Virus record (IMG/VR): IMGVR_UViG_3300050821_018642
Span: 5,133 to 69,132 of that record
Source: a virus
Length of the DNA stretch: 64,000 nt
Direction: 5' to 3' (one strand)
In this document: piece by piece, positions 5,820-47,522 of the stretch
How positions within the stretch are numbered: position 1 is the stretch's first letter
Layout: every line of letters starts with the position of its first letter
Notes under the pieces: model-generated
What the model was told of the DNA's origin: nothing
The model's database searches: none
Seen by the model: only the letters and a program-made list of their open reading frames with translations
Made by a program: the position numbers and the translations under genes

Positions 5820-5821
5820 TT

Positions 5822-6649: not shown

Positions 6650-6660
6650 AGGCGGCTTAC

Positions 6661-7026
6661 GTGGATCAAACGATACCGCTTACGACGGCTCCGAATCAAT
6701 CGTTCTCAGTGCAGTTGAGCGTCAACAGCAGTCCGCTTACATTGCAGATTACGCTCGGCTACTCTGAAATGGCCGGTTACTGGCAGATGTCCATCAGCGA
6801 CGTGAACGGCAACCTGTTGGTGGCCAGCGTGCCCTTGATAACGGGCTGGTATCCGGCGGCAAACATACTCGGTCAGTACGAATACCTGCAAATCGGCAGC
6901 GCCTATCTGTTGAACACCGGCAATTCCAATACCGACTATCCCGGTCCCAACAACCTGGATCAGTTCTCGTTGCTTTGGGGAGACAACAGCACGTACGTAA
7001 CGCCGACGCACGCGGTGGCCTTGTGA
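6661..7026 (+). CDS. hypothetical small baseplate/tail protein
   Basis: GTG start; 121 aa; in the baseplate block. Confidence 0.3.
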   Translation: MDQTIPLTTAPNQSFSVQLSVNSSPLTLQITLGYSEMAGYWQMSISDVNGNLLVASVPLITGWYPAANILGQYEYLQIGSAYLLNTGNSNTDYPGPNNLDQFSLLWGDNSTYVTPTHAVAL

Positions 7027-8084
7027 GCTCGACTACCAGTAGTATGCCTCTTTGGGGGCAGGCTTGGGAATTGACAGTTACGTACGCCACCGAATCTGGC
7101 GATCCAGACGTACAGACCATAGGATCTAGCGATTGGGAACCGGAGTCGCTACGCATTACGTTCGACGTGTTGCAGGCTATGAACACGGACCCGTTTTGGT
7201 ACGCCGATATCAGCATCTACAATATGAACGACCAGGCCGTCCAAAACACGCTTCTTAACGCCACGTGGGCCACGCTCAAGGCCGGTTTCCAGGTAGGCTC
7301 CAATCTTTACACAACCATCTGGGACGGTCCGGTGTTTCAGTCGTTGTTCACGCGTGAGAACGTGGTGGATCAAAAGGTTACGCTGCACTGCGTGGCGAAT
7401 CCATTGATCATGAGCAGCATAGTCAACTTCAACATCGGACCGGCTTCGCAGGCCCAGCTGGCGGCGAGGTTGGCTAGCGAGGTATCGCTTCCGCCGTTGA
7501 CGCCAGGACAAGGAACCATGAGCCAGCTGGCGTACGATCGAATGTCCGCCAAGCAATATCCGCGCGGTCGCACCGTATACGGCAAAGTCGGCAGGTACAT
7601 CGCGCAATTGGCGGACGACAACTTCATGCAGTCTTGGCGCGACGGCCAGCAGGTGTACGTCAGCGAAGTAAGCAAGAGCGATACCACGCCCGATCTAATT
7701 TACAGCCCACCAATTCCGCCCGGTTACACGGCCCAGCAGCTGGGATTGCCTAACAACACCACCACCAGCATCATCGGTACGCCGCGTCAAATCCAGCAAG
7801 GCGTGATATTCACGGTGCTGCTGGATCCAAGACTGGTAGTCAAGCTGCCTCCGTTGGTGGTGCAGTTGACGCGCACTCAGGTGGCCCTGCTGCAGCGCAC
7901 GCCCAGTATCAACGACTCGCTGCCTACGGTGTTGGACGCCAACTTGAAGTTCTTCGTGGCGCAGGTGCGCCACACGGGCGATACGCGCGGCAATGATTGG
8001 CAAACGGAGATAACCGGCTACAGCACCACTTACGCCGACAATTTGTTGAACGGCATCTTCGCGCCGAATTCCTTGGGAGGATGA
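7023..8084 (+). CDS. baseplate hub-like protein (gp27/gpD-like candidate)
   Basis: GTGA start/stop overlap at 7023-7026; about 354 aa immediately upstream of the spike gene. Confidence 0.35.
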   Translation: MSSTTSSMPLWGQAWELTVTYATESGDPDVQTIGSSDWEPESLRITFDVLQAMNTDPFWYADISIYNMNDQAVQNTLLNATWATLKAGFQVGSNLYTTIWDGPVFQSLFTRENVVDQKVTLHCVANPLIMSSIVNFNIGPASQAQLAARLASEVSLPPLTPGQGTMSQLAYDRMSAKQYPRGRTVYGKVGRYIAQLADDNFMQSWRDGQQVYVSEVSKSDTTPDLIYSPPIPPGYTAQQLGLPNNTTTSIIGTPRQIQQGVIFTVLLDPRLVVKLPPLVVQLTRTQVALLQRTPSINDSLPTVLDANLKFFVAQVRHTGDTRGNDWQTEITGYSTTYADNLLNGIFAPNSLGG

Positions 8085-8085
8085 A

Positions 8086-8772
8086 ATGTCCACCACGTCC
8101 ACGGCGCAGGCCCAACTTACGGCGTCGCAGGTAAACAGATCAGAATCGGCGCAATGGCGAGACATCATCAGGCGCGCGCTGGCCGACACGCGCGTATCCA
8201 TTCCGGCCTATCTAGCCGAGGACATGGACGCCGCCACGCAGACCGTCACGGTTCAAATAGCGATACAGGAGAAGTCGCGCACGCTCACCGGTCCGCAGTG
8301 GACCAGTATCAAGCCCATCTACTACGTGCCAATACTGGTGCCGCGCGGAGGCGGATCCAGCATCACTTTGCCGTTGAAGCAAGGCGACGAAGGGCTACTG
8401 ATATTTTGCGATTGCTGCTTCGATATTTGGTGGCAGAACGGCAGCGGTGGCGGACCGGTTCAGCAGATAGGAAATCACAGCCATGAGGAGGGCGATTGCG
8501 GGTTCTTCCCCGGCATGTGGAGCCAAAAGAACCTGCTTTCCAACTACTCCACCGATTCGTTGCAAGTGCGCATGGACGATGGATCGGCCATTGTGGACGT
8601 ATCCTCTGGCTCCGTGAAGGTGCAGAACAACGGAGGCACGCCGCTGGCGTTGATGAACGACACGTTCTACCAATGGTACGTGGCGCACATACAGCCATTC
8701 TTGGTGTCGCTAGGCTATAGCGGTCCGCCTGTACCGGCAGGCTCTGAAACAACGATCTTGAAAGGTCAGTAG
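8086..8772 (+). CDS. baseplate central spike protein (gp138 N-terminal / gpV-like)
   Basis: Motifs IPAYL...VTVQIAIQE...IYYVPILVP..GG...LKQGDEGLLIFCD match the spike N-terminal OB-domain family (from memory). Confidence 0.5.
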   Translation: MSTTSTAQAQLTASQVNRSESAQWRDIIRRALADTRVSIPAYLAEDMDAATQTVTVQIAIQEKSRTLTGPQWTSIKPIYYVPILVPRGGGSSITLPLKQGDEGLLIFCDCCFDIWWQNGSGGGPVQQIGNHSHEEGDCGFFPGMWSQKNLLSNYSTDSLQVRMDDGSAIVDVSSGSVKVQNNGGTPLALMNDTFYQWYVAHIQPFLVSLGYSGPPVPAGSETTILKGQ

Positions 8773-8775
8773 ACG

Positions 8776-9168
8776 ATGGCCACAGCGCCTCTAATCACAT
8801 ACCTATTGCTCGATGCCCAGTACGACCCGGTATTCGATCCCAGCAATTCACTCATAGACGCGCAGGCCGTGCAGCAGGCCATACTAACACGCCTGCGATT
8901 GTTCTTGGGCGAGTGGTGGGAGAACATGAACCTCGGCCTTCCCGTGTTCCAATCCATACTAGGACAGTTGGGCAGCGCGCGGTTCCAGGCCGCTACAAAC
9001 CTGGCCATACAACAGCAAATAGAAGGCGTGCCGTACGTGGCTTCTGTCACGTCCATTTCATCGTCGTTCGACGACGGACGATTTTCTTTTTCGGCCACCG
9101 TGCAGACTTCATTCGGCCCGGTAGCCATCACCAATCTACCGGCCAATTCCGCCAGTCTGGATACCTAA
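8776..9168 (+). CDS. baseplate wedge protein gpW/gp25-like
   Basis: 130 aa; RLRLFLGEWWENMNLGLP motif typical of GPW_gp25. Confidence 0.6.
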   Translation: MATAPLITYLLLDAQYDPVFDPSNSLIDAQAVQQAILTRLRLFLGEWWENMNLGLPVFQSILGQLGSARFQAATNLAIQQQIEGVPYVASVTSISSSFDDGRFSFSATVQTSFGPVAITNLPANSASLDT

Positions 9169-9171
9169 GTT

Positions 9172-10590
9172 ATGTCGACGCCTCCGTACGCACCGCCATC
9201 GATCGGACCGGCTGGGCTTACGATAAACACGTACCCATCCATATTAGCAGACAATCTTCAAGCCTACCTGAACATTTTCGGATTGAACCAGTACGTAGCC
9301 CCGGATTCCGCCATTTACCAATTGCTGTCCATCATCAGTTTGAAACAGTCCGATGCAAACCTTGGTCTGCAACTCGCTTACAACCAAGCCAGTCCGCAGA
9401 CCGCCGTCGGAGCCGGTCTGGATCGTATTGTGAAGATGAATGGGTTGGCGCGGTCGTCGTTCACATACTCCACGGCCATACTGACCATAACGGGTTCGGC
9501 GACTGCGGTGTTGGTGAACTGCTTCGCGCAGGACCAAAACGGAAATCTCTGGTCCATTCCAAGTCCGCTGCCTATAACTGGAGGTGCCGTGGACGTGGTG
9601 GCCGTATGCACCACACCGGGCAACGTCACGGCCGAGCCGAACAGCATCAACATCAAAGCGACTCCTTCATTGGGTTGGACCAGCGTCAACAACGCGGCTC
9701 CGGCCACCTCCGGAGATCCGGTCGAAACCGACTCAGAGCTACGCGCGCGCCAAGCCATAAGCGTGGCACTGCCTTCGCGCACCACGCTGCAGACTACCAT
9801 CGCCTCCGTGCTGGCAGTGGCCGGAGTGACGCGCGTGGCACCGGGTTACCCGACGCCTGGAGGTCCGGGCACATCCATCGAAAACCCGACGGGAGCTACA
9901 GACTCGTGGGGCAATCCTCCGCACTCCATCTCCATGGTCGTAGAAGGCGGTACCGATGCCGCTGTGGCTCAGGCCATCTATGGGGCTCGCGGGATAGGCT
10001 GCTATACCAACGGCACCACCGCCGTGGTGGTCGTGGATCCGAACAGCGGCTACTCCATGACTATCAGCTTCTTCAGGCCCACGTACATACCAATAGCCGT
10101 ATTGGTGGCCGTAACTCCGTTGGCCGGGTTCACATCGTCCACACTCGCCGCCATCCAGGCCGGGATAGTGAACTACCTGAACAGTCTATCCATCGGGGAG
10201 ACGGTGGTGTACTCTGAATTGTACGGAGCGGCGTTGACGGCACGTCCGAATCCAGACCAACCCATATTCTCCATCGCTAGCATCAGATCCGCCGCATTGT
10301 CGGCGCAGACTACCGGCAATCTGGTGCTTGGCAGCCCCAACGTCGTGGTGGCCAGCGTGGTCGGACTGGCGAACGGAATGCTGGTGGTGGATGAGACCAA
10401 TCCCGCAGCGCTTCCCGACGGCGTCATGATCATCAACATCAGCGGTAGCACCGTTACGCTGTCAGCCAACGCCTTCCAGAGCCAGACCGGAGATTCGCTT
10501 TCGTTCTTCGCGCTGGGCACCTCGGACATAGCCATGCCAAACTACTACGACGCCGTGGTGGGTCTGGACAGCAACGTACAGGTGGCCTGA
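9172..10590 (+). CDS. baseplate protein J-like
   Basis: 472 aa following the gpW-like gene; ETDSELRARQ motif typical of the baseplate-J family. Confidence 0.6.
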   Translation: MSTPPYAPPSIGPAGLTINTYPSILADNLQAYLNIFGLNQYVAPDSAIYQLLSIISLKQSDANLGLQLAYNQASPQTAVGAGLDRIVKMNGLARSSFTYSTAILTITGSATAVLVNCFAQDQNGNLWSIPSPLPITGGAVDVVAVCTTPGNVTAEPNSINIKATPSLGWTSVNNAAPATSGDPVETDSELRARQAISVALPSRTTLQTTIASVLAVAGVTRVAPGYPTPGGPGTSIENPTGATDSWGNPPHSISMVVEGGTDAAVAQAIYGARGIGCYTNGTTAVVVVDPNSGYSMTISFFRPTYIPIAVLVAVTPLAGFTSSTLAAIQAGIVNYLNSLSIGETVVYSELYGAALTARPNPDQPIFSIASIRSAALSAQTTGNLVLGSPNVVVASVVGLANGMLVVDETNPAALPDGVMIINISGSTVTLSANAFQSQTGDSLSFFALGTSDIAMPNYYDAVVGLDSNVQVA

Positions 10591-25963: not shown

Positions 25964-25974
25964 ATTTACTGGGG

Positions 25975-26031
25975 CAGCCCAGCGGCGCATCGGCTCGAAT
26001 CATTCGAGTCAAGCGCCGCTGGGCTATTTTT
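25975..26031 (+). terminator. rho-independent terminator of the late (+) operon
   Basis: Stem cagcccagcggcgc / gcgccgctgggct with a nested ctcgaat/attcgag hairpin, followed by ATTTTT. Confidence 0.45.
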
Positions 26032-26104
26032 GCGTCTATAGGGTCCATTTTGGACCAAAAACAACCCCAAATCGCCCTGGCTACGATGGTTTCAGGACTT
26101 TTGG

Positions 26105-26135
26105 AGTGGGTTTAACCACCCAAAACCGGCTGAAT
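26105..26135 (-). terminator. rho-independent terminator of the early (-) operon
   Basis: Stem cggct/agccg just past the last - strand stop; on the - strand it is followed by GTTTTGGGT. Confidence 0.35.
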
Positions 26136-26141
26136 AGCCGT

Positions 26142-26471
26142 TTATAGACGTTGCACAGGCGGAAGGGCTAATACGCCGCGCAATTTGGTTAGGAAGCTCT
26201 GCGCTTTATCCAGGTCTTCCAGACCATTCTTCTGGAGCCAGCGTAGGATGTAGCGACAGATCTGCGACTCCAGGTATGGCATTCTGGCGAAGAGATCCCA
26301 ATGCTGTATCTCCTTACCACAATGTGGGCACTGACCACTGCATGCTGTGTAGTGCGTACCACCGACTTGCTGCACTACCGCTCCTTGCGTTTCCTTTTCC
26401 ACCGCCGCTACCAACATGCGACGCGTACTAGACTTCGTAGATGTCGAATCTTGATGAGCCTTCTTGACCAC
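26142..26471 (-). CDS. DUF3310-like phage protein
   Basis: QVGGTHYTA...CPHCG...HWDLF...PYLESQICRYILRW..KNG.EDL.KA matches my memory of the DUF3310 signature. Confidence 0.45.
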   Translation of the reverse strand: MVKKAHQDSTSTKSSTRRMLVAAVEKETQGAVVQQVGGTHYTACSGQCPHCGKEIQHWDLFARMPYLESQICRYILRWLQKNGLEDLDKAQSFLTKLRGVLALPPVQRL

Positions 26472-26991
26472 AGCATTCCTCCCATGTAGTGTATACAGCG
26501 TGAATGACCTCGGCTTCCAACGGACTCAACGTGTCGTCCGGGAATGTACGACGGATGTAGTCCTTCCACCGTCGTACGCTGAAGTTCACTTTGCGATTCC
26601 CCATAGCGCGCTCGTCGCAACACCAAAGAATACCGTCCAAGCGATCAGCAAGATCCAGTATACGTCGCTCTTCGAGCGTCAACGGAAATAGCAGATCATA
26701 CTTGGACAGAGTATCAGTTTCCAACTTCTCGAATTTTGCTGAAAACTCTGGGCCCATTTCCCACTTGAACGGTGCTGGCATATCACCGGAAGCTTGCTCG
26801 GCTAGATCGTGCGTGGCTGCCATCATCAGTAGATTGGAGCTAGGCATACCATCGCTTAGAAAGAACACCAGCAGAATAACGCCGTGTTGATGTTGTGCGT
26901 TGGTATTACGTAGAATACCCATACGCGTATGGAATCGCGTTACCAGACCGCCTTCGTGTGCGAACTGTATACGCTCTTTGATTGACTTCAC
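26428..26991 (-). CDS. HD-domain phosphohydrolase (YfbR-like 5'-deoxynucleotidase candidate)
   Basis: H...H(x21)HD...E...GD metal-binding motif spacing: HTRMGILRNTNAQHQHGVILLV...ATHDLAEQASGD. Confidence 0.55.
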   Translation of the reverse strand: MKSIKERIQFAHEGGLVTRFHTRMGILRNTNAQHQHGVILLVFFLSDGMPSSNLLMMAATHDLAEQASGDMPAPFKWEMGPEFSAKFEKLETDTLSKYDLLFPLTLEERRILDLADRLDGILWCCDERAMGNRKVNFSVRRWKDYIRRTFPDDTLSPLEAEVIHAVYTTWEECCGQEGSSRFDIYEV

Positions 26992-28094
26992 TTCTGCCTC
27001 CGCTCAATCCACTCATTACACGCGCGCTTCCAATCCGGCGCTTCTATACCGTCAAGACAGGTGAACATACTGTATGAATCTTTCCATTTGCGATACGTCC
27101 AGGTTAGGAACATCGGAATAGCAACGGTCTCCATGAAAGCTGTATTCATGGGCGGTACGTTGAACGCCGCTTCCCACGCCGCTGGTGTCGGGTCGTTGAT
27201 ACCTACAGTATCAGGCGGTTGTGGTTGACGTATAAGACCGCGCGCCCACGTCATGAACTTCGATAGGTCCTCATCGAAGCCGGGTTCCAGCGCCGGACCC
27301 ATGTCTGGAAGCTTACCTAGTGAATCGCTCTCCAGCGCAATTTGTTCCAGCTTCTCTCGGTTAAAGACATCGGTATAGACATGAAAGTTGTTACTAAACT
27401 GCCGATACACACCCATCGGAATGCCGATGCGCATTGCCATGTACTCGTGGAAGAAACTGAAGTGCACGGCGTTGGCTCCGTAGCAACCCCATATGATGTC
27501 ATTGCTGCGATTGCATACGGTAATATTCAACTTCCCACCGCGACAATCCAGATATACGTGCGTATTGCACGGAACATCCAGACCACCGTGGGTGGCTACC
27601 TGTAGGTCGTGGTCATGTAGATCTGGATTGTCGCGATTCATCGTGCGATTCTGATCGTAATCCCCGGCTCCAGGCCAAGCATTCCACATCGTCAGCACAC
27701 ATCGCCTGGATTTAGGGTCTTTCTTTAACTCTGCTATGATGGCCTCCAGCTGGTCCCAGCCGAAGAAGTTGCGCCAACGCCAGCCGTATGCACCCCACGA
27801 TGTAACGCCGTCGTCGCTATAGGCGCGCATCTGCTTAGCGAAGTATTCGACGAACTCTACGTCGTTGGCACCGCTGAGAATCCAGAGCGATTCCATAACG
27901 TGGAAGAAAGGATTTGCATCACGTAGCGGGCTGAATAGCACGCGGCGACGTGGGTTTACGTACTCCGTAAGCACTGGACCCGGTGCAACGATCACCGAGC
28001 CATTGCGCGATTGTTCCTCTACGCCTTCACGTAGAAGATAGTTGATGCCGATCTGTAATGCGGCATTTACATCATCGGTCTTAAAGCTATACAT
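26988..28094 (-). CDS. thymidylate synthase-family enzyme (dUMP hydroxymethylase candidate)
   Basis: Aligns to ThyA along its length: ESLWILSG, YGWRWRNFFGWDQLEAII..LK.DPKSRRCVLTMWN, VPCNTHVYL..GGKL..CNRSNDIIWG.YGAN. His147 of ThyA is replaced by Asn, and there is a ~100-aa C-terminal extension. Start ATG at 28094 has a GAGGAG RBS. Confidence 0.65.
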   Translation of the reverse strand: MYSFKTDDVNAALQIGINYLLREGVEEQSRNGSVIVAPGPVLTEYVNPRRRVLFSPLRDANPFFHVMESLWILSGANDVEFVEYFAKQMRAYSDDGVTSWGAYGWRWRNFFGWDQLEAIIAELKKDPKSRRCVLTMWNAWPGAGDYDQNRTMNRDNPDLHDHDLQVATHGGLDVPCNTHVYLDCRGGKLNITVCNRSNDIIWGCYGANAVHFSFFHEYMAMRIGIPMGVYRQFSNNFHVYTDVFNREKLEQIALESDSLGKLPDMGPALEPGFDEDLSKFMTWARGLIRQPQPPDTVGINDPTPAAWEAAFNVPPMNTAFMETVAIPMFLTWTYRKWKDSYSMFTCLDGIEAPDWKRACNEWIERRQK

Positions 28095-28965
28095 ACGTCT
28101 CCTCGCTCGGTGTGAAGTGCTGCTTCGCTCTACGTCCAAGGTATTTTACCTTGAAGTACTTTCCTATTTCGCAAAGTGTGTTCTGCGTGTCTTGGGCCGA
28201 CAGACCGTGCAGTTCGCTCGGTAGCTTCGGGAGTGCTGTATCCATCAACTTCAGTAACGTGCTGTGCCACTCTTCTTCATTCCAACGCTCTGTGACGTCG
28301 CGACCCGTTACCCAGTTCAAACCACGTCGCGAGCCTGGACCACTAGCGGCAAAGGTATGCCAGTCGTCAGCGTTCTTGCCGGCCGGAGTGTACTTGACAT
28401 CGCCCACTACCTGCGCTGCCATAAAGCCAGCACCGAATCCGTGGAACTGCATCAGCGAATTATGTAGTCCACGTAGTGATGTACAGGTACGCAGCTCTTC
28501 GCCCAGCGCTTTGCGTCCTGACCACAATGGACCCAGTACGCACGTAGACAGGTAGCTAGCCTTGCTTTGACCTTTGGTAGCGCCAACTGCATTTATCATA
28601 TACGCATTATTGTAGGCGCAAAGACCGCGCTCACGTCGTGCATCCATGATACGTACGAAGCGCTGCGGATTCCAGCGTTCTGGGTAGCCTAGTTCCTCCA
28701 TAGTGGCTGGTAGATTCACCAGCCGTGCAAGGCACATAGCGAATACCACGGTATCATAATCCGTGGCGTGCGGAAGAAGCCATGATCCGTGTATCCATTT
28801 AGTAACGCGGTCGTCGTTACGACGCACGTTCGTAAAGCGGTACTTCTGAAGTATTGGATCCTTGGTCCAGGGTGCTGGTTTACCTTCCAGACGACGTTGA
28901 TGGATGTTCCACCGCTCCGTTACGAAGTCAGTGAATTCCCTAAGCCTTGGAAACAGCTTGCTCAT
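28087..28965 (-). CDS. uncharacterised protein, candidate DNA-modification enzyme
   Basis: 292 aa with no P-loop; translationally coupled between the ThyA-homologue and the nucleotidyltransferase. Confidence 0.4.
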   Translation of the reverse strand: MSKLFPRLREFTDFVTERWNIHQRRLEGKPAPWTKDPILQKYRFTNVRRNDDRVTKWIHGSWLLPHATDYDTVVFAMCLARLVNLPATMEELGYPERWNPQRFVRIMDARRERGLCAYNNAYMINAVGATKGQSKASYLSTCVLGPLWSGRKALGEELRTCTSLRGLHNSLMQFHGFGAGFMAAQVVGDVKYTPAGKNADDWHTFAASGPGSRRGLNWVTGRDVTERWNEEEWHSTLLKLMDTALPKLPSELHGLSAQDTQNTLCEIGKYFKVKYLGRRAKQHFTPSEETYV

Positions 28966-29692
28966 ACGCCTCCAGTTGCTCTGGGGTGCCTACCACATGA
29001 AATTCCTTCTCCGGTATTTCGTGGAGAAGTACGTCGCCCATACGCAGCATATAACTGTGTACTGGAGCTAGGTAGAACTCGCCATTCGTGGAGTTGTCGT
29101 AGAATACCATAGCCGCGATTGCAGCACGTAGCCTACTCCACGTCTTAAATACGTGGACGCCGCACGTAGCCATGTCGCTGATAGGCTGCTTCTCCACGAT
29201 GCGTGTAACTTCTTGGCCTTCATACTCCACGAAGCTGTAACGCGCGCTACCGTCCGTCGGCTTGAACGTCAGCACCATGGATACGGTGGAACTGAGCGGA
29301 TGTGTGAAGTGCGCCTCCGCGTGCGCTACAAACGCCTTGATAAGCGCTGGATCGATGATACTGTCACAATCCATTACCAGCACCGGCTGGTCTTCGTCCA
29401 GGACGGCTGCGGCTGCAAGAAGCGTCATAGCCGCGCCGCGCTGCGTATGCTGTACGCCGATGATCTTAGGTACGCAATCCTCCGGCGCTTCCGTCCATAC
29501 ATCATGTCGAATGGATTGTGGACATAGTACGATGGCTTCGTGAATTTCCGTACCCAAAGACACAGCCATAGCCTGTCTAAGTGCATACCATATCATAGCA
29601 TGCCCGTTGACCGGTATGAGCGGTTTCATCTGTGTATAGCCAGCGCTTGCAAAGCGATCGCCGCGCCCAGCGGCTAGGATTACTACTTGCAT
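28940..29692 (-). CDS. sugar-1-phosphate (or phospho-alcohol) nucleotidyltransferase
   Basis: N-terminal MQVVILAAGRGDRF...KPLIPVNGHAMI NTP_transferase signature; RBS GGAGGA 6 nt before ATG 29692. Confidence 0.6.
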   Translation of the reverse strand: MQVVILAAGRGDRFASAGYTQMKPLIPVNGHAMIWYALRQAMAVSLGTEIHEAIVLCPQSIRHDVWTEAPEDCVPKIIGVQHTQRGAAMTLLAAAAVLDEDQPVLVMDCDSIIDPALIKAFVAHAEAHFTHPLSSTVSMVLTFKPTDGSARYSFVEYEGQEVTRIVEKQPISDMATCGVHVFKTWSRLRAAIAAMVFYDNSTNGEFYLAPVHSYMLRMGDVLLHEIPEKEFHVVGTPEQLEAYEQAVSKA

Positions 29693-30495
29693 TTGACTTC
29701 CTCCATTCGTTCTTCGAGATTCATTGCGAGGTTCAGTGCCCACTCCCTGGCATGTGGCTGTACCTTGTACAGCCGTACCAGGTGTGTAACGAGGTAGTAA
29801 GCGCAAAGTTCCAGGTTAAGCCGCTCCACTTGTAAGAACGCTTTGATCATCTCGCGTTCCACAACGTCACAGCTAGTGGTACAAGCTATGCTGTCATAAC
29901 CGAAGAACGACTGCAGAAGCTTGCCGCCGTCCAATTCAGCCTCTAGCGGAAGCGGTCTTGTGGATGGATCAATCCACAAGCCACCAGCCATGATGTTCTC
30001 CAGCGTAGGATCACCGTGTACATTCTTCACCATACGGTTTCCAGTTATCCAGCGTGCTCCGCCTTTCCACGTCTGTTTTAGTACTTCACGAAGCGCAGGT
30101 TCTGTTGCCAATTCAAGCTGCTCTTCGTAATCGTACGCACGATCACGCTCAGCTCCGCCTACCCAGTGTGGTACCTTCCACAACACTGATAAGCGTACAA
30201 GTGCATTAGCCGTGTCTTCCATCGTAGCTGGTCCAAGCATAGGCATGAAGTAAGAACACGCATTTTCGTCGGAATCACCGAATTCTACTTCCACGAATAT
30301 TTCTGGGAAATGTCGCATCTTTACAGCTTGACGCACCACTCCCGGTCCGCTCTTGCGTATCCATGGTTCCAGCGTCGCTCCGGAGTTACGCTTCACTTTG
30401 TTATCTATCACCACCACGTTCTCCTGTTCTCCGTACAAGTATTCTTCACAGTCCTTACACAACCCAGATGCCTCCATACAACGTGGACAGCTCAC
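29683..30495 (-). CDS. APH/choline-kinase-fold kinase (anomeric sugar kinase candidate) with N-terminal zinc ribbon
   Basis: Catalytic loop VHGDPTLENIM (HGDxxxxN) and LWIDPS; CPRC...CKDC at the N-terminus; GTGA overlap with the upstream gene. Confidence 0.5.
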   Translation of the reverse strand: MSCPRCMEASGLCKDCEEYLYGEQENVVVIDNKVKRNSGATLEPWIRKSGPGVVRQAVKMRHFPEIFVEVEFGDSDENACSYFMPMLGPATMEDTANALVRLSVLWKVPHWVGGAERDRAYDYEEQLELATEPALREVLKQTWKGGARWITGNRMVKNVHGDPTLENIMAGGLWIDPSTRPLPLEAELDGGKLLQSFFGYDSIACTTSCDVVEREMIKAFLQVERLNLELCAYYLVTHLVRLYKVQPHAREWALNLAMNLEERMEEVKCK

Positions 30496-31352
30496 TTCTT
30501 CACTCCGCTGGACTCGTAGGCCTTCTTCCAGGCCACCACCACTTCCTTGCGCTTGATGGAGCCCTTGTAATCGCGGTCCACCACTTTGACGAACGGCGCG
30601 TGCAGCTTCTGTAGTACGAAGCACTGTGCGTCGCTGTACTCCATGGAGCGCTCGCCCGAGCAGCCTCCGGCCGCACCGAAGCTTCCGTATTCGTTGTTCA
30701 GGAGCTCCACGAAGCTGTGACCCTGTTCGCCTTTACGCAGCATACTCAGTACAACGTGGAAGTCCTCGCGCAGCCCGACGGCATCGAATCGAATCTTGTA
30801 CTTCTTGTAGCGCTCCGGGTCTACACCGAAGGCGTACATCATCCGGCCGTTGATATGCCACGATTCCTTCTGCTTGTCGCTGTGGCGTCGGTGCGCTATA
30901 CCGAGCATGGCCGGTGCGTGAGTGCCGTAGCGGGCGTCCAGTTGCTCAAATAGCTTCAGCAGCACGGCGTCTTTGGGGTAGCGCCGCATCATCAAGGCGG
31001 TCCCGGTTGGAGCTCCAGGCTTGATGCCGTAGGCCTGTCGGTCTTCCTCCCATACACGCCACTTGGGTGGGCACCGTTCGAAGAACGCAATGTCGTCGTC
31101 CATCATAAACAGGAGACGATCTCCGTTCTTCGGTAGGTTCGTCATGATCCAGTGACGTTTGGCCGCGATGGACTTTGTGCCCTTCGCTAGAACCACCTCA
31201 TTGTCTGGGTACAGCGCTTGTAGCGCCTTGGCTTCTTCCGGAAGCGACGGAACCAGTACCACTTCCTTCTGTAACGACGTAGGCAGTGCGCCCAGCGTGA
31301 TCTGTTTGTTTACGCGTCCATGCGTAGGTATGACAAGCGTGATGTTCTTCAC
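30492..31352 (-). CDS. GT-A-like glycosyltransferase
   Basis: N-terminal ITLVIPTHGR and DxD-like FMMDDDIAF; RBS AAGGAG. Confidence 0.45.
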   Translation of the reverse strand: MKNITLVIPTHGRVNKQITLGALPTSLQKEVVLVPSLPEEAKALQALYPDNEVVLAKGTKSIAAKRHWIMTNLPKNGDRLLFMMDDDIAFFERCPPKWRVWEEDRQAYGIKPGAPTGTALMMRRYPKDAVLLKLFEQLDARYGTHAPAMLGIAHRRHSDKQKESWHINGRMMYAFGVDPERYKKYKIRFDAVGLREDFHVVLSMLRKGEQGHSFVELLNNEYGSFGAAGGCSGERSMEYSDAQCFVLQKLHAPFVKVVDRDYKGSIKRKEVVVAWKKAYESSGVKK

Positions 31353-31461
31353 AGGCTAAAGCTCCTTGCTGAATTTAAGAAATGTATCCAGAGACACGAA
31401 TGCCGCCCGATACGCTGGGCGGCATTGTAGATTACAGAAAACTAATTCTGACTTTCTGGTC

Positions 31462-35600: not shown

Positions 35601-35930
35601 TCAGGCGTTTCGCGCGGCGCACTCCGTACAGCGTGTAGTCAGGTCACGTAGCGCCGAGTACCTGTCCACGCGTACAGCGCTGTACAAGCGTAGCGTACGT
35701 ACATGGACGTGACGTAGCGGACTACGATGACGGTAGCCGCGCCGCTGAAGTTCGCGTACAAGCGCTGCGTGTCGACGCTCCAGGCTCTTGGGCTCCACGC
35801 AATTATGCGCAATGAAGCCTTCAATACGCCTTCCACGGCGTAGATGCCCAACGAACATGTGCAGTTCCACGTGCTCACCGAGTAGATGTTTGCGGCACAT
35901 CACACGCGGGTCCACCATCCACATTCTCAT
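35601..35930 (-). CDS. pyrimidine-dimer DNA glycosylase-like protein (Pyr_excise-like)
   Basis: Strong RBS AAGGAGG; N-terminus MRMWMVDPRVMCRKHLLGEHVELH resembles the MRLWSLHP..L...L..E family. Confidence 0.4.
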   Translation of the reverse strand: MRMWMVDPRVMCRKHLLGEHVELHMFVGHLRRGRRIEGFIAHNCVEPKSLERRHAALVRELQRRGYRHRSPLRHVHVRTLRLYSAVRVDRYSALRDLTTRCTECAARNA

Positions 35931-42356: not shown

Positions 42357-42519
42357 TGCATTTACCGTCTTGGAAGTCGTGTCTAGTGCATGCTACCGAC
42401 GGTTTCACTTCTGGCTTACACTTACCAGCGTGACCTATTGGCTCCATGCAGTAAGTGTTACTGAGCATACGCCCGTGTTCATCGACAATGGTAGGTATAA
42501 CCTTTTGACATAGAATCAT
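42313..42519 (-). CDS. small zinc-ribbon protein
   Basis: Cys-rich 68-aa ORF. Confidence 0.3.
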   Translation of the reverse strand: MILCQKVIPTIVDEHGRMLSNTYCMEPIGHAGKCKPEVKPSVACTRHDFQDGKCIGCGELEDASPSRS

Positions 42520-43163
42520 AGCACGTCATCGTTTCCGGGCGCATACTCAACCCTGGGTTTACTTACGTCCACAAGTGCAGCCTTAACTGCCTTCTTCCAC
42601 TCCGCGTTGCCGGCTTCGCGGTCCTTCAGGTCCGCCCAGATAGATTGTAACCACCGTGCTTGATGCTGTGCGTCGGCTAGTGCGTTATGGCGCGTACCCT
42701 GGAACGCGGGCTCCGGCGTGCTGGCATGCTGCACCTTCATGGTGCGGAAACATTGACTGTTGTAGTACTTCCACGGCAACAAGATATTACATGCCTTGTA
42801 GGCGCACCCGAGTAGCACGTTGTCGAAGTCCGATCCATTACCCCATAACTTCGCACCTGATGGGAAGAACTCCGTAGCGAACTCTGTCAGTGCCCACGCA
42901 ATGTGATCACCGCCTGTCTTGGCCGCTTCAAATACGCGCCGCGCTGCTGGTTCTTGTTTTTCCCACCAGTCCAGCGTGGCTGTGTCGAACGTCAGTCCAG
43001 CTTGCCGGCAAGAAGTCATGGATATCACCGGCACCTCGAAGTTACGCCAGTCACGCTCCGCCATACCTGGTGCGAATGCCACTGCGCCTATGGCAATGAT
43101 ACCGCTTCCAGGCGCAGTCCCGACCGTCTCGAGGTCAAGCATTACATCGGTGTATGCAGTCAT
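42516..43163 (-). CDS. DEDDh 3'-5' exonuclease (DnaQ-like)
   Basis: Exo I MLDLETVG, Exo II WGNGSDFDNVLL, Exo III HNALADA. Confidence 0.6.
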   Translation of the reverse strand: MTAYTDVMLDLETVGTAPGSGIIAIGAVAFAPGMAERDWRNFEVPVISMTSCRQAGLTFDTATLDWWEKQEPAARRVFEAAKTGGDHIAWALTEFATEFFPSGAKLWGNGSDFDNVLLGCAYKACNILLPWKYYNSQCFRTMKVQHASTPEPAFQGTRHNALADAQHQARWLQSIWADLKDREAGNAEWKKAVKAALVDVSKPRVEYAPGNDDVL

Positions 43164-43342
43164 CGCGCCAGCCCCAGGTCGTGCTTGAACTTGATCCAAC
43201 GCAACTCTTCTTCAGCGGTCAGTATACGCGGTCCACCGTCGCCTGTCACGTACGGACGTGCGCCGTCTTCTTGCACGACCGTCAAGGCCGGTTTGCCATC
43301 GCGTTCTGTTATATTCCAACACTGCGATCTGCCCACGGTCAT
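43160..43342 (-). CDS. hypothetical small protein
   Basis: 60-aa ORF. Confidence 0.25.
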   Translation of the reverse strand: MTVGRSQCWNITERDGKPALTVVQEDGARPYVTGDGGPRILTAEEELRWIKFKHDLGLAR

Positions 43343-43719: not shown

Positions 43720-44478
43720 TCACATCTTCTCCGGGCACGGGCCTCCTTTGGACTTCGCAAACTTACACCACTGACAATGCCGCCCGGTGCGAGTCTTGAA
43801 CGTGGTGTCCGTCATCATCTGACGGGTACGCGCTATCCACTCATTCTGTAGCGGCTTCAGGTTCTTCATGGTGAATTTCTCCGTGGCTGACTGGCCGGTA
43901 TCAGCGTACACATGCTGCGCCGTTAGCTGCACGGCTTTGTCACCACCAGCCAGCTGACCTATCTGCACCAGTCGTAGACCGCCCAGCGCGTACAGGCTAC
44001 GCTGCTGCTTATGCTCTGGATGCACGCGCCCAGTCTTCCAATCGATGATGTCCACCGTGGGCGGAGTAACTGTATCCGCGCAGATGTCGGTCTTGATACG
44101 CAGCCACGCAGCTTTCCAGTCGCGCCAATCTACCGGATTCCACTTCTTGTCGAAGGCCCACTCCTGCTCTGTACGCGCTTTGGCTGCGCGCATACGCATA
44201 AGCTGTTCCTTTATTGGCTCCATCTCCGGAGTAAGCTTCGGTACCTTACCTTTACCGCTTACAATGCTTGCAGCCGTGTCATGTACACGATTGCCCTTTA
44301 CGAACGCAGGATTCTCCGGCTCCTGGATGCGTATGCGCATGATTTTATCCAGGCACACGCTGAACGGGCAGTTGATGTATTGCTGGTAGACAGAATACGA
44401 CCAAGACGTTAGAGTTGCAAAGCGTCTCTTAGCCAATTGATGCTTCCTTCTCCGCCACGGCGGATGTTTCGGTTTCAT
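43720..44478 (-). CDS. Cas4/RecB-like PD-(D/E)xK nuclease with 4-Cys cluster
   Basis: N-terminal S.S..Y..CP and C-terminal CQWCKF...C; VDIIDWKTG core. Confidence 0.55.
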   Translation of the reverse strand: MKPKHPPWRRRKHQLAKRRFATLTSWSYSVYQQYINCPFSVCLDKIMRIRIQEPENPAFVKGNRVHDTAASIVSGKGKVPKLTPEMEPIKEQLMRMRAAKARTEQEWAFDKKWNPVDWRDWKAAWLRIKTDICADTVTPPTVDIIDWKTGRVHPEHKQQRSLYALGGLRLVQIGQLAGGDKAVQLTAQHVYADTGQSATEKFTMKNLKPLQNEWIARTRQMMTDTTFKTRTGRHCQWCKFAKSKGGPCPEKM

Positions 44479-44902
44479 CCACGGTATACACCGCTACGTG
44501 ATCGTCCAGGTGACCCAGCGCCATCGGGATAAGCCACCGTAAGTTCGGCATTACGTTACTTGGTAATCCTTTGACGTAGAACGGGCCGACTATTTCGTCC
44601 TCCGTTGTAGCGCCGTGATTGACTACAACATCGTTGAAGCAGTGGAAGAATACAACGTTGAAGCCGTCGCCACGCAGAACCAAGAACTTATCCCAGATAT
44701 ACTTGGCCGTGTCGACGCCAGTTTCCTCCTTGAACTCGCGACACATAGCTTCGATTGGCAGTTCGCCTGATTCTATCTTACCGCCAACGCCGTTCCACTT
44801 ATCCACCATGTGGGGAACGTTTGCTGGTGCGCGTTTCTTCTTGATTAGAAGAACACGCGTCTTATCGCTGCTGAATGCGAATCCTACTACGTACTCTTTC
44901 AT
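44429..44902 (-). CDS. Nudix hydrolase
   Basis: Nudix box GGKIESGELPIEAMCREFKEETGV; AAGGAG RBS 9 nt before ATG 44902. Confidence 0.6.
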   Translation of the reverse strand: MKEYVVGFAFSSDKTRVLLIKKKRAPANVPHMVDKWNGVGGKIESGELPIEAMCREFKEETGVDTAKYIWDKFLVLRGDGFNVVFFHCFNDVVVNHGATTEDEIVGPFYVKGLPSNVMPNLRWLIPMALGHLDDHVAVYTVDETETSAVAEKEASIG

Positions 44903-45036
44903 CTTCATCTTCTCCTTCTTTGTTCGTTCTGCGTATACTGCGTCACTCTCCACGTACGCACCATGACCAGGCTCGAAGAAGTCAGGTACGTACACTGCGT
45001 CCGGATGACTGGCCGGCAACATCCGTCTGGAAAGAT

Positions 45037-45585
45037 TCACGGCTTAACTCCTTGTGTACTTACATCTCCGTTGTAACGACCTCGTTTTGCATACGACGCC
45101 CACTCCGGTACGGACGTATGCTTGAAGAATACCATCTGACCTATCTTATCACCCTGGCGTAGCTTGACTGTATGACGTCTAGTCATGTTCTTCAACTCCA
45201 GGGTAAGCACCGAGCCATGCCAACCTGCATCACACCACCCGGCATTTGCGTGATCTACGCCGGTACGCGCTAGTGACGACTTCAGCTTGTACTCAGCGCT
45301 GATCCAATCAGGTAGGTTGAATACCTGCTCGCTCTGCGCCAGTATGAACTCACCCGGTTCCAGGCTGTAGTAATCGTCGTCCGCATCAGCAAACATCCAT
45401 TCACGCATTCCAAGTAATGATTCACGTTTTCGAATGTCAACAACATGCTCGTTACGTGATTCATACAGTATCTTGTTTCCAAGCGTGATGTCGATGGACG
45501 TCGAATTTACGTGTTCTGGTAAGGAGTTAGTGATGACTCCGGCCTTCTGCAACTCGAGAAGCTCTGTGTAACTTAGTAGACTCAT
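45037..45585 (-). CDS. dcd: dCTP deaminase family protein
   Basis: SIDITLG, GWCDAGWHG..TLE and GQMVFF motifs; AAGGAGG RBS. Confidence 0.6.
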   Translation of the reverse strand: MSLLSYTELLELQKAGVITNSLPEHVNSTSIDITLGNKILYESRNEHVVDIRKRESLLGMREWMFADADDDYYSLEPGEFILAQSEQVFNLPDWISAEYKLKSSLARTGVDHANAGWCDAGWHGSVLTLELKNMTRRHTVKLRQGDKIGQMVFFKHTSVPEWASYAKRGRYNGDVSTQGVKP

Positions 45586-47522
45586 GCTACCTCCTTGAAT
45601 TTTTCCAGGAATCCCCAATTGGGCCCTACTTCACCGTCGCTCAACATTGGGATGTCTGTTTCAATGCTAAGCATGCATTCCTTCATGATTTTCTGTTCTT
45701 CCTTCATAGCTTTAGGTGGGCAGCTGAAGTTGATCTCGTCATAGACAGTTACCACGAACCTACCGCGACGCTTAGGATGACTATCATACCTGATTAGTGT
45801 CTCCTTAGTAACGTCTGCACCACTTCCTTGTAGCAGATAGTTCAATAATTTGTACTCATAGGTCATATCACGCCCGTAGAACTCACTGTACGTTGGCGGT
45901 TCGCAGTAGTACAACCTACCGCCCCACGTCCTGATGGGCGCGCCGTTAGGCCCATAACTCTTATCACGAGCCAGTTCCTTGAGCTGATCATCCAGTTCCT
46001 TGATGGACGGAACCGCTGCGTTGATGGCTCGCTGGATGATCTGCGCTACCGGCTTATCCTCTTCAGGAAGATGCAAGGCGTCCATCAGTCCGCTCAGACC
46101 CTGTCCGTACACACGACCGAACACGCAGGTCTTAGCCGTATCTCGATCGAAGCTATCACGTAGCATAGCCTCAATCAAGCGTCGCTCGGCCTCAGCACGC
46201 ACATTCTCATGTATGTCGAACTTAGGGTCATTAAGAAAGCCTTGCATTACCTGGCCTTCTTCGAAGTGACCGAAGAGCCTTAATTCTTGCTGATTGAAAT
46301 CGCGCTTTCCCCATTGCTCGCCATTGTCAGGTAAACAGTACTGACGCATATAAGGTAGCTCCGGTACCCTTAGCCAAGCTGGATGTACATACCCGGAGCT
46401 AGCCGCGCGCTTCCATTTTTTAGGAATGTTCAGGAAGTTCGGTCTGGAGCATATAATCCGACCACTTCGTGCGCCAGACATATCCTTACCGCCATTGCGC
46501 GAACTACGCACCTGCGACCAGTTAGGGAACAGCGATCCGTGACCGACTGTACCTAGTTCCAACCAAGGCTCAGCGAACATATTGATACACGTCGCCATCT
46601 GTCCACGGTACTGAAGAGCGTGATACACACGCTTATCCTTGAAGCGGTCCAGTATCAGGTACTTCTTACTGACACTGAGCTGCCCCTTGGGCGTGCGTTT
46701 GAATTCAGTAACAATACCTTTGTTGTAAAGTGCCTCACCCAGCTGGCGGTCGCTATCGATGTTATCGATGCCGAGGCGCTTCCTGAGCCACACATCAGCC
46801 TTTTCAACTCCGGCCTTCATCGCCGGCAGATCGCGCTCTAGGCCGTCCACGTCCGTACGCATACCTACACGTGCGTTACGTAGTAGGATTGGCATTAAAC
46901 GACGATCGCGGTCGTACGCCTTACCCATCTCCGCATCTATAATGCGTGGATACAGAAGGTTGAATAGCCTACCAGTGCGTACTAGATCTCCCTTGTGGTA
47001 TGGCTTCACTATTTGATACGGGCACATCCATAGATACTGACCCCATTCACTAGGCTTCTTCTTAGCCTCCGGAACATTGGCTAGTACCCACTCCTTGACG
47101 CGATCCTGCTCCTCCGGCGGGATACCGAGTAACCGTTCTGCCGTAGGCTTCAACGCTAGCGACTCAGCGTGCGGATCATCCAGGAACGTCAGATACATAG
47201 TATCATAGGTACGTTCCCATGGTAAAATTGGTAAATCCCAGTGCGCCTCAGCCACATCATGGTCGAATGATCCATACTGTGTAAGTATTGGATAGCGGCT
47301 GTTGTACGCCTTGACTAGCTCACCGCGCCCCTGCTTCTCCGTGCAGTTATTACCGTGAGCCTTAGTACCATCGCCGTGACCCCACGCCATCAATATGTAA
47401 TCCGACCGGTCAGGCCACTTGAGTGCCAGCGACACCGCTTTGGGTGGGTAGTTAGGACGAGGTAGAATACCCTTAGTCTCAAAATCGAAGATTATACAAT
47501 CGGGAGCCTTAGTGCGTGGCAC
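45582..47522 (-). CDS. DNA polymerase I family (3'-5' exonuclease plus polymerase; no 5' nuclease domain)
   Basis: Exo I IFDFET; motif A region RRLMPIL; motif B R....K...FGRVYG; motif C VYDEINF; GTG start with GGAG RBS. Confidence 0.85.
   Translation of the reverse strand: MPRTKAPDCIIFDFETKGILPRPNYPPKAVSLALKWPDRSDYILMAWGHGDGTKAHGNNCTEKQGRGELVKAYNSRYPILTQYGSFDHDVAEAHWDLPILPWERTYDTMYLTFLDDPHAESLALKPTAERLLGIPPEEQDRVKEWVLANVPEAKKKPSEWGQYLWMCPYQIVKPYHKGDLVRTGRLFNLLYPRIIDAEMGKAYDRDRRLMPILLRNARVGMRTDVDGLERDLPAMKAGVEKADVWLRKRLGIDNIDSDRQLGEALYNKGIVTEFKRTPKGQLSVSKKYLILDRFKDKRVYHALQYRGQMATCINMFAEPWLELGTVGHGSLFPNWSQVRSSRNGGKDMSGARSGRIICSRPNFLNIPKKWKRAASSGYVHPAWLRVPELPYMRQYCLPDNGEQWGKRDFNQQELRLFGHFEEGQVMQGFLNDPKFDIHENVRAEAERRLIEAMLRDSFDRDTAKTCVFGRVYGQGLSGLMDALHLPEEDKPVAQIIQRAINAAVPSIKELDDQLKELARDKSYGPNGAPIRTWGGRLYYCEPPTYSEFYGRDMTYEYKLLNYLLQGSGADVTKETLIRYDSHPKRRGRFVVTVYDEINFSCPPKAMKEEQKIMKECMLSIETDIPMLSDGEVGPNWGFLEKFKEVA

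Follow-up and report, generated by a model that had tools for sequence, protein, structure and literature searches.

What could a thymidylate synthase homologue, a small kinase, a nucleotidyltransferase and a glycosyltransferase do together when they are encoded side by side in a phage genome? The question is raised by six open reading frames (ORFs) that fill positions 26428-31352 of the 64,000-nucleotide stretch of viral DNA analysed here (IMG/VR record IMGVR_UViG_3300050821_018642, positions 5,133 to 69,132; hereafter the window), a phage genome segment in which structural genes occupy the + strand to ~26 kb and are followed by a long - strand module of replication and nucleotide-metabolism genes. 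A first-pass annotation had read the cluster as one for the hypermodification of thymidine by way of 5-hydroxymethyldeoxyuridine (5-hmdU). This reading is upheld by the present analysis: a triad of genes (for a PF18723 protein, a ThyA homologue and an HD-domain hydrolase) and a trio preceding it (for the glycosyltransferase, the kinase and the nucleotidyltransferase) very probably form a 5-hmdU-based DNA hypermodification operon, with a DNA glycosyltransferase and a kinase/nucleotidyltransferase pair that could plausibly activate its donor. To the complete model, in which 5-hmdU is synthesised before replication and O-glycosylated after it with a nucleoside diphosphate (NDP) sugar made by the kinase and the nucleotidyltransferase, we assign a probability of about 0.6.

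Architecture of the operon and its variable slot

All six genes lie on the - strand. The first gene of the operon (30492..31352) encodes a glycosyltransferase (GT) of the TAGT family and GT-A type with 286 aa, and it is followed by the genes for a small kinase of the APH/choline-kinase fold (29683..30495; 270 aa from a GTG at 30495, or 264 aa from an ATG at 30477), a sugar-1-phosphate-type nucleotidyltransferase (NTase) of 250 aa (28940..29692), the PF18723 protein of 292 aa (28087..28965), the ThyA homologue (26988..28094; 368 aa from an ATG, a TTG start giving 383 aa being less likely) and the YfbR-like HD-domain phosphohydrolase of 187 aa (26428..26991). Along this order the successive junctions overlap by 4, 10, 26, 8 and 4 nt, a GGAG-type ribosome-binding site stands ahead of every start of the six genes, and a separate gene call on an identical ENA contig yielded the same six products (286, 270, 250, 292, 368 and 187 aa). 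The coordinates given in the first-pass annotation are confirmed, as is the translational coupling that it had described for these genes. A seventh small ORF of 109 aa (26142..26471, -), which overlaps the HD gene and was likewise called on the identical ENA contig, probably ends the operon; its syntenic counterpart in related contigs gives weak DUF3310 matches. The operon is bounded by GC-rich hairpins, one upstream of the GT gene (31353-31461; GCCGCCCAGCGTATCGGGCGGC) and one between the convergent modules (25964-26141; CCCAGCGGCGC...GCGCCGCTGGG), which are likely terminators.

When the 4.9-kb region was compared by megablast with 50,697 phage records, no DNA match was returned, and the region therefore has no close cultured relative. 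The same gene order is present in at least eight related metagenomic contigs, seven of which (L004-L010) encode proteins with 39-72% identity to those of the window, while L015 is an identical copy. This recurrence indicates that the cluster consists of real, selected genes and not of chance ORFs. The backbone common to the relatives comprises a DUF2786 protein, a large protein of 520-720 aa, a variable slot and the genes for PF18723, ThyA and HD, followed on the opposite strand by lysis and structural genes.

It is the content of the slot that varies. The window, L004-L010 and L015 carry the TAGT, kinase and NTase genes there; L012 carries a fusion of a GATase with an amino-acid:DNA transferase (AADT), a homologue of the P-loop 5-hmdU DNA kinase (5-HMUDK) and an acetyltransferase; L013 a GT-like gene, an HNH gene and a SPASM-domain gene; and L014 two GT-like genes (TAGT), a radical-SAM gene, a split AADT-like gene and a P-loop kinase. 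In Pseudomonas phage M6 an AADT, a pyridoxal phosphate (PLP) enzyme, a radical-SAM enzyme and a P-loop kinase stand ahead of gp55, gp58 and gp59, and the cassette of Alphaproteobacteria phage PhiJL001 consists of PF18723, TAGT, Nmad5, ThyA and HD. The comparison of gene neighbourhoods thus places the trio upstream of a PF18723-ThyA-HD triad that stays constant, in a slot whose content is exchanged. Because this is the slot that P-loop 5-HMUDK and AADT modules occupy in L012, L014 and M6, we tie the trio to 5-hmdU DNA and not to a cell-surface target. Judged from gene order and family membership, the triad is the predicted constant 5-hmdU core and the trio one interchangeable decoration module, and the slot upstream of PF18723-ThyA-HD behaves as a hot-swappable hypermodification site. 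One of the relatives, L009, bears two further genes, an extra HAD/NT5C-like gene between GT and kinase (6480-7010) and a homing-endonuclease gene (GIY-YIG/NUMOD3) whose insertion separates PF18723 from ThyA (9304-10113).

Predicted activities of the triad and the trio

The ThyA homologue matches PF00303 (E 7e-14) and phrog_5131 (E 2e-106) and is 42% identical to M6 gp58 across 100% of its length, including a C-terminal extension of ~100 aa. In the alignment with E. coli ThyA (E. coli numbering is used throughout) it keeps Cys146, R21, R126, R127 and R166 and retains Asn177 and Asp169, while three positions are replaced (H147N, Q165N and C168N); the Asn177, the substituted His147 and the long C-terminal extension to which the first-pass annotation had drawn attention are all confirmed. 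Position 143 is an Asp when counted back from Pro145-Cys146 in 'GGLDVPCN', a register that was read manually, MAFFT having mis-gapped this stretch. The same residue signature is found in M6 gp58, PhiJL001 gp24, RSL1 ORF230 and the Sonora enzyme. According to published rules for diagnostic positions, Asn177 stands for uracil and Asp177 for cytosine, D169N marks the 5-hydroxy-dCMP synthases, and Leu143 is a water-access position with an acidic replacement in known hydroxymethylases (PMC13326640); the modified base of M6 derives from 5-hmdU (PMC8989533). From this signature and the full-length identity to M6 gp58, the ThyA homologue is predicted to be a dUMP hydroxymethylase making 5-hmdUMP. A role as 5-hydroxy-pyrimidine (5-hydroxy-dCMP) synthase was also considered and was rejected because Asp169 is retained.

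The HD protein, which had been described as YfbR-like, matches PF12917 above the cut-off (E 8e-9, 35.8 bits vs 25.9) as well as phrog_6047 (E 1e-33), and its gene is syntenic with M6 gp59. Its PDB sequence matches are YfbR (E 0.009) and DatZ (E 0.22), with 'HDxxE..GDxPxPxK' as the common motif, and the metal-binding motif 'THDLAEQASGDMPAPFK' of the window protein aligns with 'YHDASEVLTGDLPTPVK' of E. coli YfbR. The protein bears a weak resemblance to DatZ, a dATP triphosphohydrolase from phages that falls within this HD superfamily too. By family, the protein is a putative (d)NMP or dNTP hydrolase that would bias the pyrimidine pool, for example as a sink for dTMP/dTTP. Outside the operon, a dCTP-deaminase-like gene (45037-45618, -; PF22769, E 8e-30) and a NUDIX gene (44429-45040, -; PF00293, E 1e-11) lie directly downstream of the gene for DNA polymerase A (45582-47522; PF00476, E 1e-38), and their probable role is dUMP supply and pool control for the pathway. 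A 238-aa protein (58160-58876, -) that carries the N-terminal domain of MazZ-like dATP/dGTP diphosphohydrolases (PF18909, E 1e-11) may be another enzyme shaping the nucleotide pool. Our scan of the window covered most ORFs of at least ~100 aa outside the + strand structural module (1-26000), plus a few smaller ones, and no adenylosuccinate-synthetase-type (PurZ-like) domain was found among them.

For the 292-aa protein of the triad, which had been listed as unknown with a possible aGPT-Pplase-like role, the family relationship stands and the rest does not. It belongs to PF18723 (HMUDK_hel; E 2e-42, 146 bits vs a cut-off of 25, profile positions 4-275 of 281), a family that was formerly aGPT-Pplase clade 1 and still bears the JGI name 'aGPT pyrophosphorylase clade 1'; it is thus not an unknown protein, nor is it the catalytic transferase, which is PF18724. 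The protein has a DNA-glycosylase-like helix-hairpin-helix (HhH) fold, and its GPGS hairpin, D189 and the pair C265-E266 are invariant across 41 PF18723 homologues. Both families are represented in M6, where gp55 is a PF18723 protein and gp51 the catalytic amino-acid:DNA transferase of PF18724 (aGPT-Pplase2, ADDT, AADT); gp55 was omitted from the minimal lysate mix that produces N-alpha-glycinylthymidine (PMC8989533). None of the six operon proteins matches PF18724, and M6 gp51 as a query finds nothing in the window. Likewise, tblastn searches for a P-loop 5-HMUDK with M6 gp54 and the Sonora kinases found nothing in the window or in L004-L010, and no Walker-A motif is present in the kinase, the NTase or the GT of the window. 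An equivalence of the Cys-Glu pair of PF18723 with the catalytic pair of AADTs was considered and is not claimed, the hhalign comparison of the PF18723 alignment with M6 gp51 being not significant. PF18723 always accompanies ThyA-like and HD genes, and the protein probably binds or flips 5-hmdU in DNA. In the literature searched we found no role assigned to PF18723 or to the kinase family described below.

Among the proteins of the trio, the GT matches PF20691 (TAGT; E 5.7e-15, 56 bits vs a cut-off of 27.5) and phrog_842 (E 4e-36), and its sequence shows a DxD-type motif ('MMDDDIAF'). It is 35% identical to RSL1 ORF237, 31% to PhiJL001 gp22 and 61-72% to its counterparts in L004-L010. The TAGT family includes the hydroxymethylcytosine (HMC) glucosyltransferase of T2/T6, and the GT-A enzymes that are associated with TET dioxygenases in phages have a fold like that of JGT, the base-J glucosyltransferase. 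The GT-A enzyme recognised in the first reading of the locus is therefore a member of a DNA-glycosylating family, and family membership together with synteny suggests a putative DNA 5-hmdU O-glycosyltransferase. The assignment of the NTase to the sugar-1-phosphate type was equally borne out by matches to PF00483 (E 9e-14, 52 bits vs a cut-off of 21.2) and PF12804 (NTP_transf_3, E 2e-12). Its NCBIfam matches include GlmU, RmlA and MurU-type models, and its best PDB sequence matches are 4evw, an NDP-sugar pyrophosphorylase, and 7whr, whose depositors call it a nucleotidyl transferase family protein. The N-terminal signature region G-x-G-x-R ... K reads 'LAAGRGDRF...QMKPL', and the protein is 31% identical to RSL1 ORF235.

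The kinase gave no meaningful match in Pfam (PF01636 included), PHROG, NCBIfam or a phmmer search of the PDB, and tblastn against phages produced one marginal match only. Because the sequence libraries gave nothing, the fold was drawn from an AlphaFold2 model (pLDDT 87.5, pTM 0.84), for which the top Foldseek matches are APH(3'), CcrZ, LicA, FN3K and choline/ethanolamine kinases; those to APH(3'), LicA and CcrZ have a probability of 0.99-1.0 at a TM of about 0.45-0.55. A profile search for the family recovered 520 cluster representatives. The motifs HGDxxxEN (HGD(P)T.EN) and WxDPS are invariant among the homologues, PF01636 (APH) is matched by five of 36 distant relatives, and the core motif HGDPxxxNxM...IDP...D.xKxL...GYD is shared with the APH domain of RSL1 ORF236 (E 4e-5) and with the RB69 gp52 kinase (E 5e-4). 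The catalytic core HGDxxxxN...D, made up of the Brenner motif (HxDxxxxN) and a metal-binding Asp downstream of it, is intact. The model and the invariant motifs accordingly support the APH fold that had been suggested for this protein. Members of the family, distant ones too, were found only beside genes for ThyA homologues, TAGT or NTases; an NTase is the kinase's constant companion and an HAD phosphatase an occasional one, which is the signature of NDP-sugar synthesis. On the strength of the modelled fold it is a putative anomeric sugar or sugar-phosphate kinase. At its N-terminus the window kinase is also extended by a short segment that contains two CxxC pairs ('SCPRCMEASGLCKDC'; 30420-30495, -); most homologues are devoid of it and start at 'MIID..RNSGATLEP'. 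The extension may be a small zinc-ribbon-like add-on, or an untranslated leader if the start lies further downstream.

A distant homologue of the kinase occurs on contig L017 in a cluster (5144-9275) consisting of a ThyA gene (with Asp177 and hence of dCMP type by motif inspection), the kinase, an HAD phosphatase, an NTase and a 415-aa protein, adjoining genes for a dCMP deaminase and PolA. The cluster mirrors, in split form, the route to UDP-arabinose that the proteins AfhE and AfhF form in cytosine-modifying phages, and by this analogy it is probably a cytosine glycosylation pathway of the Afh type.

Proposed pathway and competing explanations

In the first stage of the proposed pathway, which is modelled on orthologous systems, the dCTP-deaminase-like and NUDIX genes would supply dUMP, the ThyA homologue would convert dUMP to 5-hydroxymethyl-dUMP, and cellular kinases would raise the latter to the triphosphate, a step for which host kinases have been proposed in phage 15599 (PMC13458397). 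The HD hydrolase would remove competing nucleotides, and the phage family-A polymerase would incorporate 5-hmdU in place of T. In the second stage, reconstructed from protein families and synteny, the APH-fold kinase would phosphorylate a sugar or sugar-phosphate at C1, the NTase would turn the sugar-1-phosphate into an NDP-sugar, and the single TAGT-family GT-A enzyme would attach the sugar to 5-hmdU in DNA through the oxygen of the 5-hydroxymethyl group, giving a base-J-like product. By analogy with other phage modifications, the product would probably protect the DNA from restriction and other nucleases.

Several observations weigh against this model. Neither genes for a dNMP kinase, a sugar isomerase, an epimerase or an HAD phosphatase nor further sugar-metabolism genes were found among the scanned window ORFs; because the former are missing there, no name can be put to the donor sugar, and host enzymes would have to make up for what is missing. 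PhiJL001 possesses a GT and neither kinase nor NTase, so that glycosylation as such can do without the latter two. The fold alone does not decide whether the substrate of the kinase is a small molecule or DNA, and hhalign connects the kinase only weakly with that of RB69 (probability 32%). The NTase was considered as a direct homologue of AfhE, and this was rejected, since BLASTP shows no similarity to RB69 gp53. Furthermore, the invariant Cys-Glu pair and Asp of PF18723 suggest catalysis, and the model gives this protein no step. Finally, the window phage is known from metagenomes only.

The conserved residues of PF18723 lead to a different distribution of tasks, in which the kinase (or the NTase) would activate the 5-hydroxymethyl group of 5-hmdU in DNA, the Cys-Glu pair of PF18723 would displace the leaving group with a nucleophile, and the GT would add a sugar to the product or to leftover 5-hmdU. 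Such a pathway would account for a locus with no P-loop 5-HMUDK or AADT homologue, when both are found in the same slot in L012, L014 and M6; C265-E266 recalls the essential Cys and Glu of the AADTs (PMC8989533, PMC11472151), and in phage SP10 the DNA kinase carries a fused domain of the PF18723 type (PMC5889632). PF18723 is, however, present in every cassette type, including that of PhiJL001, where Pfam and Walker-A inspection revealed no kinase in the genes examined, and the M6 minimal reaction for N-alpha-glycinylthymidine proceeded from a mix that omitted gp55. Moreover, the invariable company of an NTase, and sometimes of an HAD phosphatase, is that expected for NDP-sugar synthesis, and the known APH-fold enzymes work on small molecules, so that we regard activation on the DNA as unlikely, if still deserving of some weight. 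A little less probable again is the specific version in which the APH-fold kinase/NTase activates 5-hmdU directly in the polymer and PF18723 is a DNA transferase joining a sugar-derived nucleophile, whereby the linkage would differ from a simple O-glycoside. A decoration with a phospho-alcohol, likewise improbable, would have a choline/ethanolamine-kinase-like kinase and a LicC/IspD-type cytidylyltransferase make a CDP-alcohol, CDP-glycerol or CDP-ribitol for addition to 5-hmdU or DNA. The pairing of LicA with LicC is an established precedent for it, LicA and the choline and ethanolamine kinases are among the fold matches of our kinase, and the NTase also matches NTP_transf_3 and, weakly, IspD. 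Yet the best matches of the NTase are sugar-1-phosphate enzymes, no LicD- or TagF-type phosphotransferase is present, and the only transferase of the operon is the TAGT GT-A enzyme, whose characterised relatives use NDP-sugars.

Two further explanations question the substrate itself. GT-A enzymes and NDP-sugar genes are frequent in the moron and serotype-conversion loci of phages, and the trio could accordingly serve a non-DNA target, such as host envelope glycans or virion proteins, and merely adjoin nucleotide-metabolism genes. This would be in line with a metagenome survey by Pyle et al. in which ~65% of the GT matches had no modification enzyme nearby (bioRxiv 10.1101/2023.12.21.572611). 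Against it, translational coupling joins the trio to PF18723, ThyA and HD, its GT falls in the DNA-specific TAGT family, the slot it occupies is otherwise filled by proven DNA-modifying modules, and its kinase family is encountered only beside ThyA homologues or TAGT, all of which makes a non-DNA target very unlikely. The slightest probability is given to an ordinary thymidylate synthase or a dCMP enzyme in place of the dUMP hydroxymethylase, with a modified base that does not derive from 5-hmdU. Most related phage records do label the protein 'thymidylate synthase', and its best PDB sequence match is the CMP hydroxymethylase MilA; but MilA has an Asp at the position aligned to 177, as has the L017 enzyme, whereas the window protein has Asn177, its Asp143 and H147N set it apart from true thymidylate synthases, it and the M6-type enzyme are orthologues, and a dCTP-deaminase-like gene is present.

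Known systems and significance of the cassette

The core of the proposed pathway has its counterpart in the thymidine hypermodification clusters known from the M6/YuA-like phages (Mesyanzhinovviridae) and from ViI, PaMx11 and SH-Ab 15599, which make 5-NedU, 5-NeOmdU, 5-AcNmdU and dapT (PMC5889632, PMC8989533, PMC13458397). These clusters share with the window a core of PF18723 (M6 gp55), dUMP hydroxymethylase (gp58) and HD hydrolase (gp59), the context of a family-A polymerase and a deaminase, and a scheme by which 5-hmdU is incorporated pre-replication and decorated afterwards. The window differs from them in having no P-loop 5-hmdU DNA kinase, AADT (PF18724), PLP or radical-SAM enzyme, and in having TAGT, APH-fold kinase and NTase instead, for which the expected product is a glycoside, in contrast to the amino-acid-derived side chain of the M6 type.

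A comparable logic on cytosine is known from RB69, DLP3 and HY126, whose pathway to arabinosyl-5-hydroxycytosine employs a ThyA homologue as 5-hydroxy-dCMP (5hodCMP) synthase, AfhE as an NTase-kinase fusion, AfhF as phosphatase, and DNA arabinosyltransferases (PMC13326640); the AfhE/AfhF route to UDP-arabinose has been proven in HY126, and for RB69 and DLP3 it is inferred (PMC13326640). The window resembles these phages in that a ThyA homologue stands beside an APH-fold kinase, a sugar-1-phosphate NTase and one or more DNA glycosyltransferases, in the provision of a phage-made NDP-sugar and in the common kinase core motif. The target in these phages is cytosine (N177D, D169N), while the window enzyme has Asn177 and Asp169 and hence points to uracil. 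Kinase and NTase are separate genes in kinase-NTase order in the window and fused in the order NTase-kinase there; the glycosyltransferases are of GT-B type there and of GT-A type (TAGT) in the window; the NTases have no detectable sequence similarity; and the arabinose-5-phosphate isomerase (SIS) and HAD phosphatase of these phages were not found among the scanned window ORFs.

The gene order itself recurs in Ralstonia phage RSL1, where ORF230-238 include ThyA (ORF230), PF18723 (ORF231), an NTase (ORF235), an APH-domain protein (ORF236) and a TAGT (ORF237) in the same arrangement, and which provides the best phage-database match for both GT and NTase of the window. RSL1 differs in that a sulfotransferase, an APS (adenylylsulfate) kinase and a further two TAGT-like GTs are encoded there, and its glycan is likely larger and possibly sulfated. 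As annotated here, the RSL1 record (163104-171498) encodes ThyA, PF18723, three TAGT-like GTs, an NTase, an NTase/APH protein, a galactose-3-O-sulfotransferase-like protein and an APS kinase, a gene set which hints at a sulfated glycan on a DNA pyrimidine. PhiJL001 (gp19-gp25) shares PF18723, TAGT, ThyA and HD with the window, has Nmad5 in addition and differs by being without kinase and NTase. RSL1 and PhiJL001 are both phages of other types with no DNA-level similarity to the window, and the literature searched contained no report on the DNA chemistry of either, nor one of glycosylated 5-hmdU in phages.

The predicted product, an O-glycosylated 5-hydroxymethyluracil formed by a GT-A enzyme, finds its parallel in base J of kinetoplastids (made by the thymidine hydroxylases JBP1/2 and the glucosyltransferase JGT) and in phage TET/5mYOX-GT clusters, where the phage relatives have a JGT-like fold (PMC8256090, PMC13229309, bioRxiv 10.1101/2023.12.21.572611). 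In the window, the hydroxymethyl group would be made pre-replication by the ThyA homologue, in contrast to the oxidation of T in DNA by JBP, and the Pfam scan of window ORFs brought up no Fe/2-oxoglutarate dioxygenase (TET/JBP domain) in those that it covered. Replacement of T in the window phage would also probably be global and not site-specific, with a phage-encoded supply of the sugar donor. The combination of kinase, NTase and GT-A enzyme next to a ThyA homologue, which the first-pass annotation had thought undescribed, does not hold up as such: RSL1 has it in the same order, RB69, DLP3 and HY126 apply the same logic to cytosine, and the survey by Pyle et al. reported GT-A enzymes near ThyS and 'APH phosphotransferase' (bioRxiv 10.1101/2023.12.21.572611). 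The general kind, a ThyA homologue with a DNA glycosyltransferase and a phage NDP-sugar supply, is already known for cytosine from T-even phages, RB69, DLP3 and HY126.

Elsewhere in the window, an 864-aa protein (61357-63951, -) contains the shoulder domain of the Major Vault Protein (PF11978, E 2.5e-21) together with a Vault_3 repeat (E 4e-10), which is unusual in a phage genome. A T4 endonuclease V-like pyrimidine-dimer glycosylase (35601-35930, -; PF03013), a DnaJ-domain protein (57634-58065, -) and an Rv2179c-like 3'-5' exoribonuclease (42516-43199, -) are also encoded and have no obvious tie to the cluster.

The cassette would represent an uncharacterised thymidine branch of phage DNA glycosylation. 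If the proposed pathway is true, the DNA of the window phage would be the first of any phage shown to contain glycosylated 5-hydroxymethyluracil, a base-J-like modification reached by a pre-replicative ThyA route and with a phage-made sugar donor, and the sugar hypermodification that is proven for cytosine would be extended to thymidine. If, on the other hand, the reading in which 5-hmdU is activated on the DNA is true, PF18723, the constant partner in these cassettes, would gain a function. The arrangement of a fixed triad and an exchangeable cassette, whether for glycosylation, amino-acid transfer, radical-SAM chemistry or mixtures of these, provides a rule for the mining of DNA chemistries which may be worth more than the single locus. 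The enzymes of the cassette are candidate tools for the labelling of 5-hydroxymethyluracil (5hmU), and modifications of this kind bear on the resistance of phages to restriction and to glycosylase-based defences.

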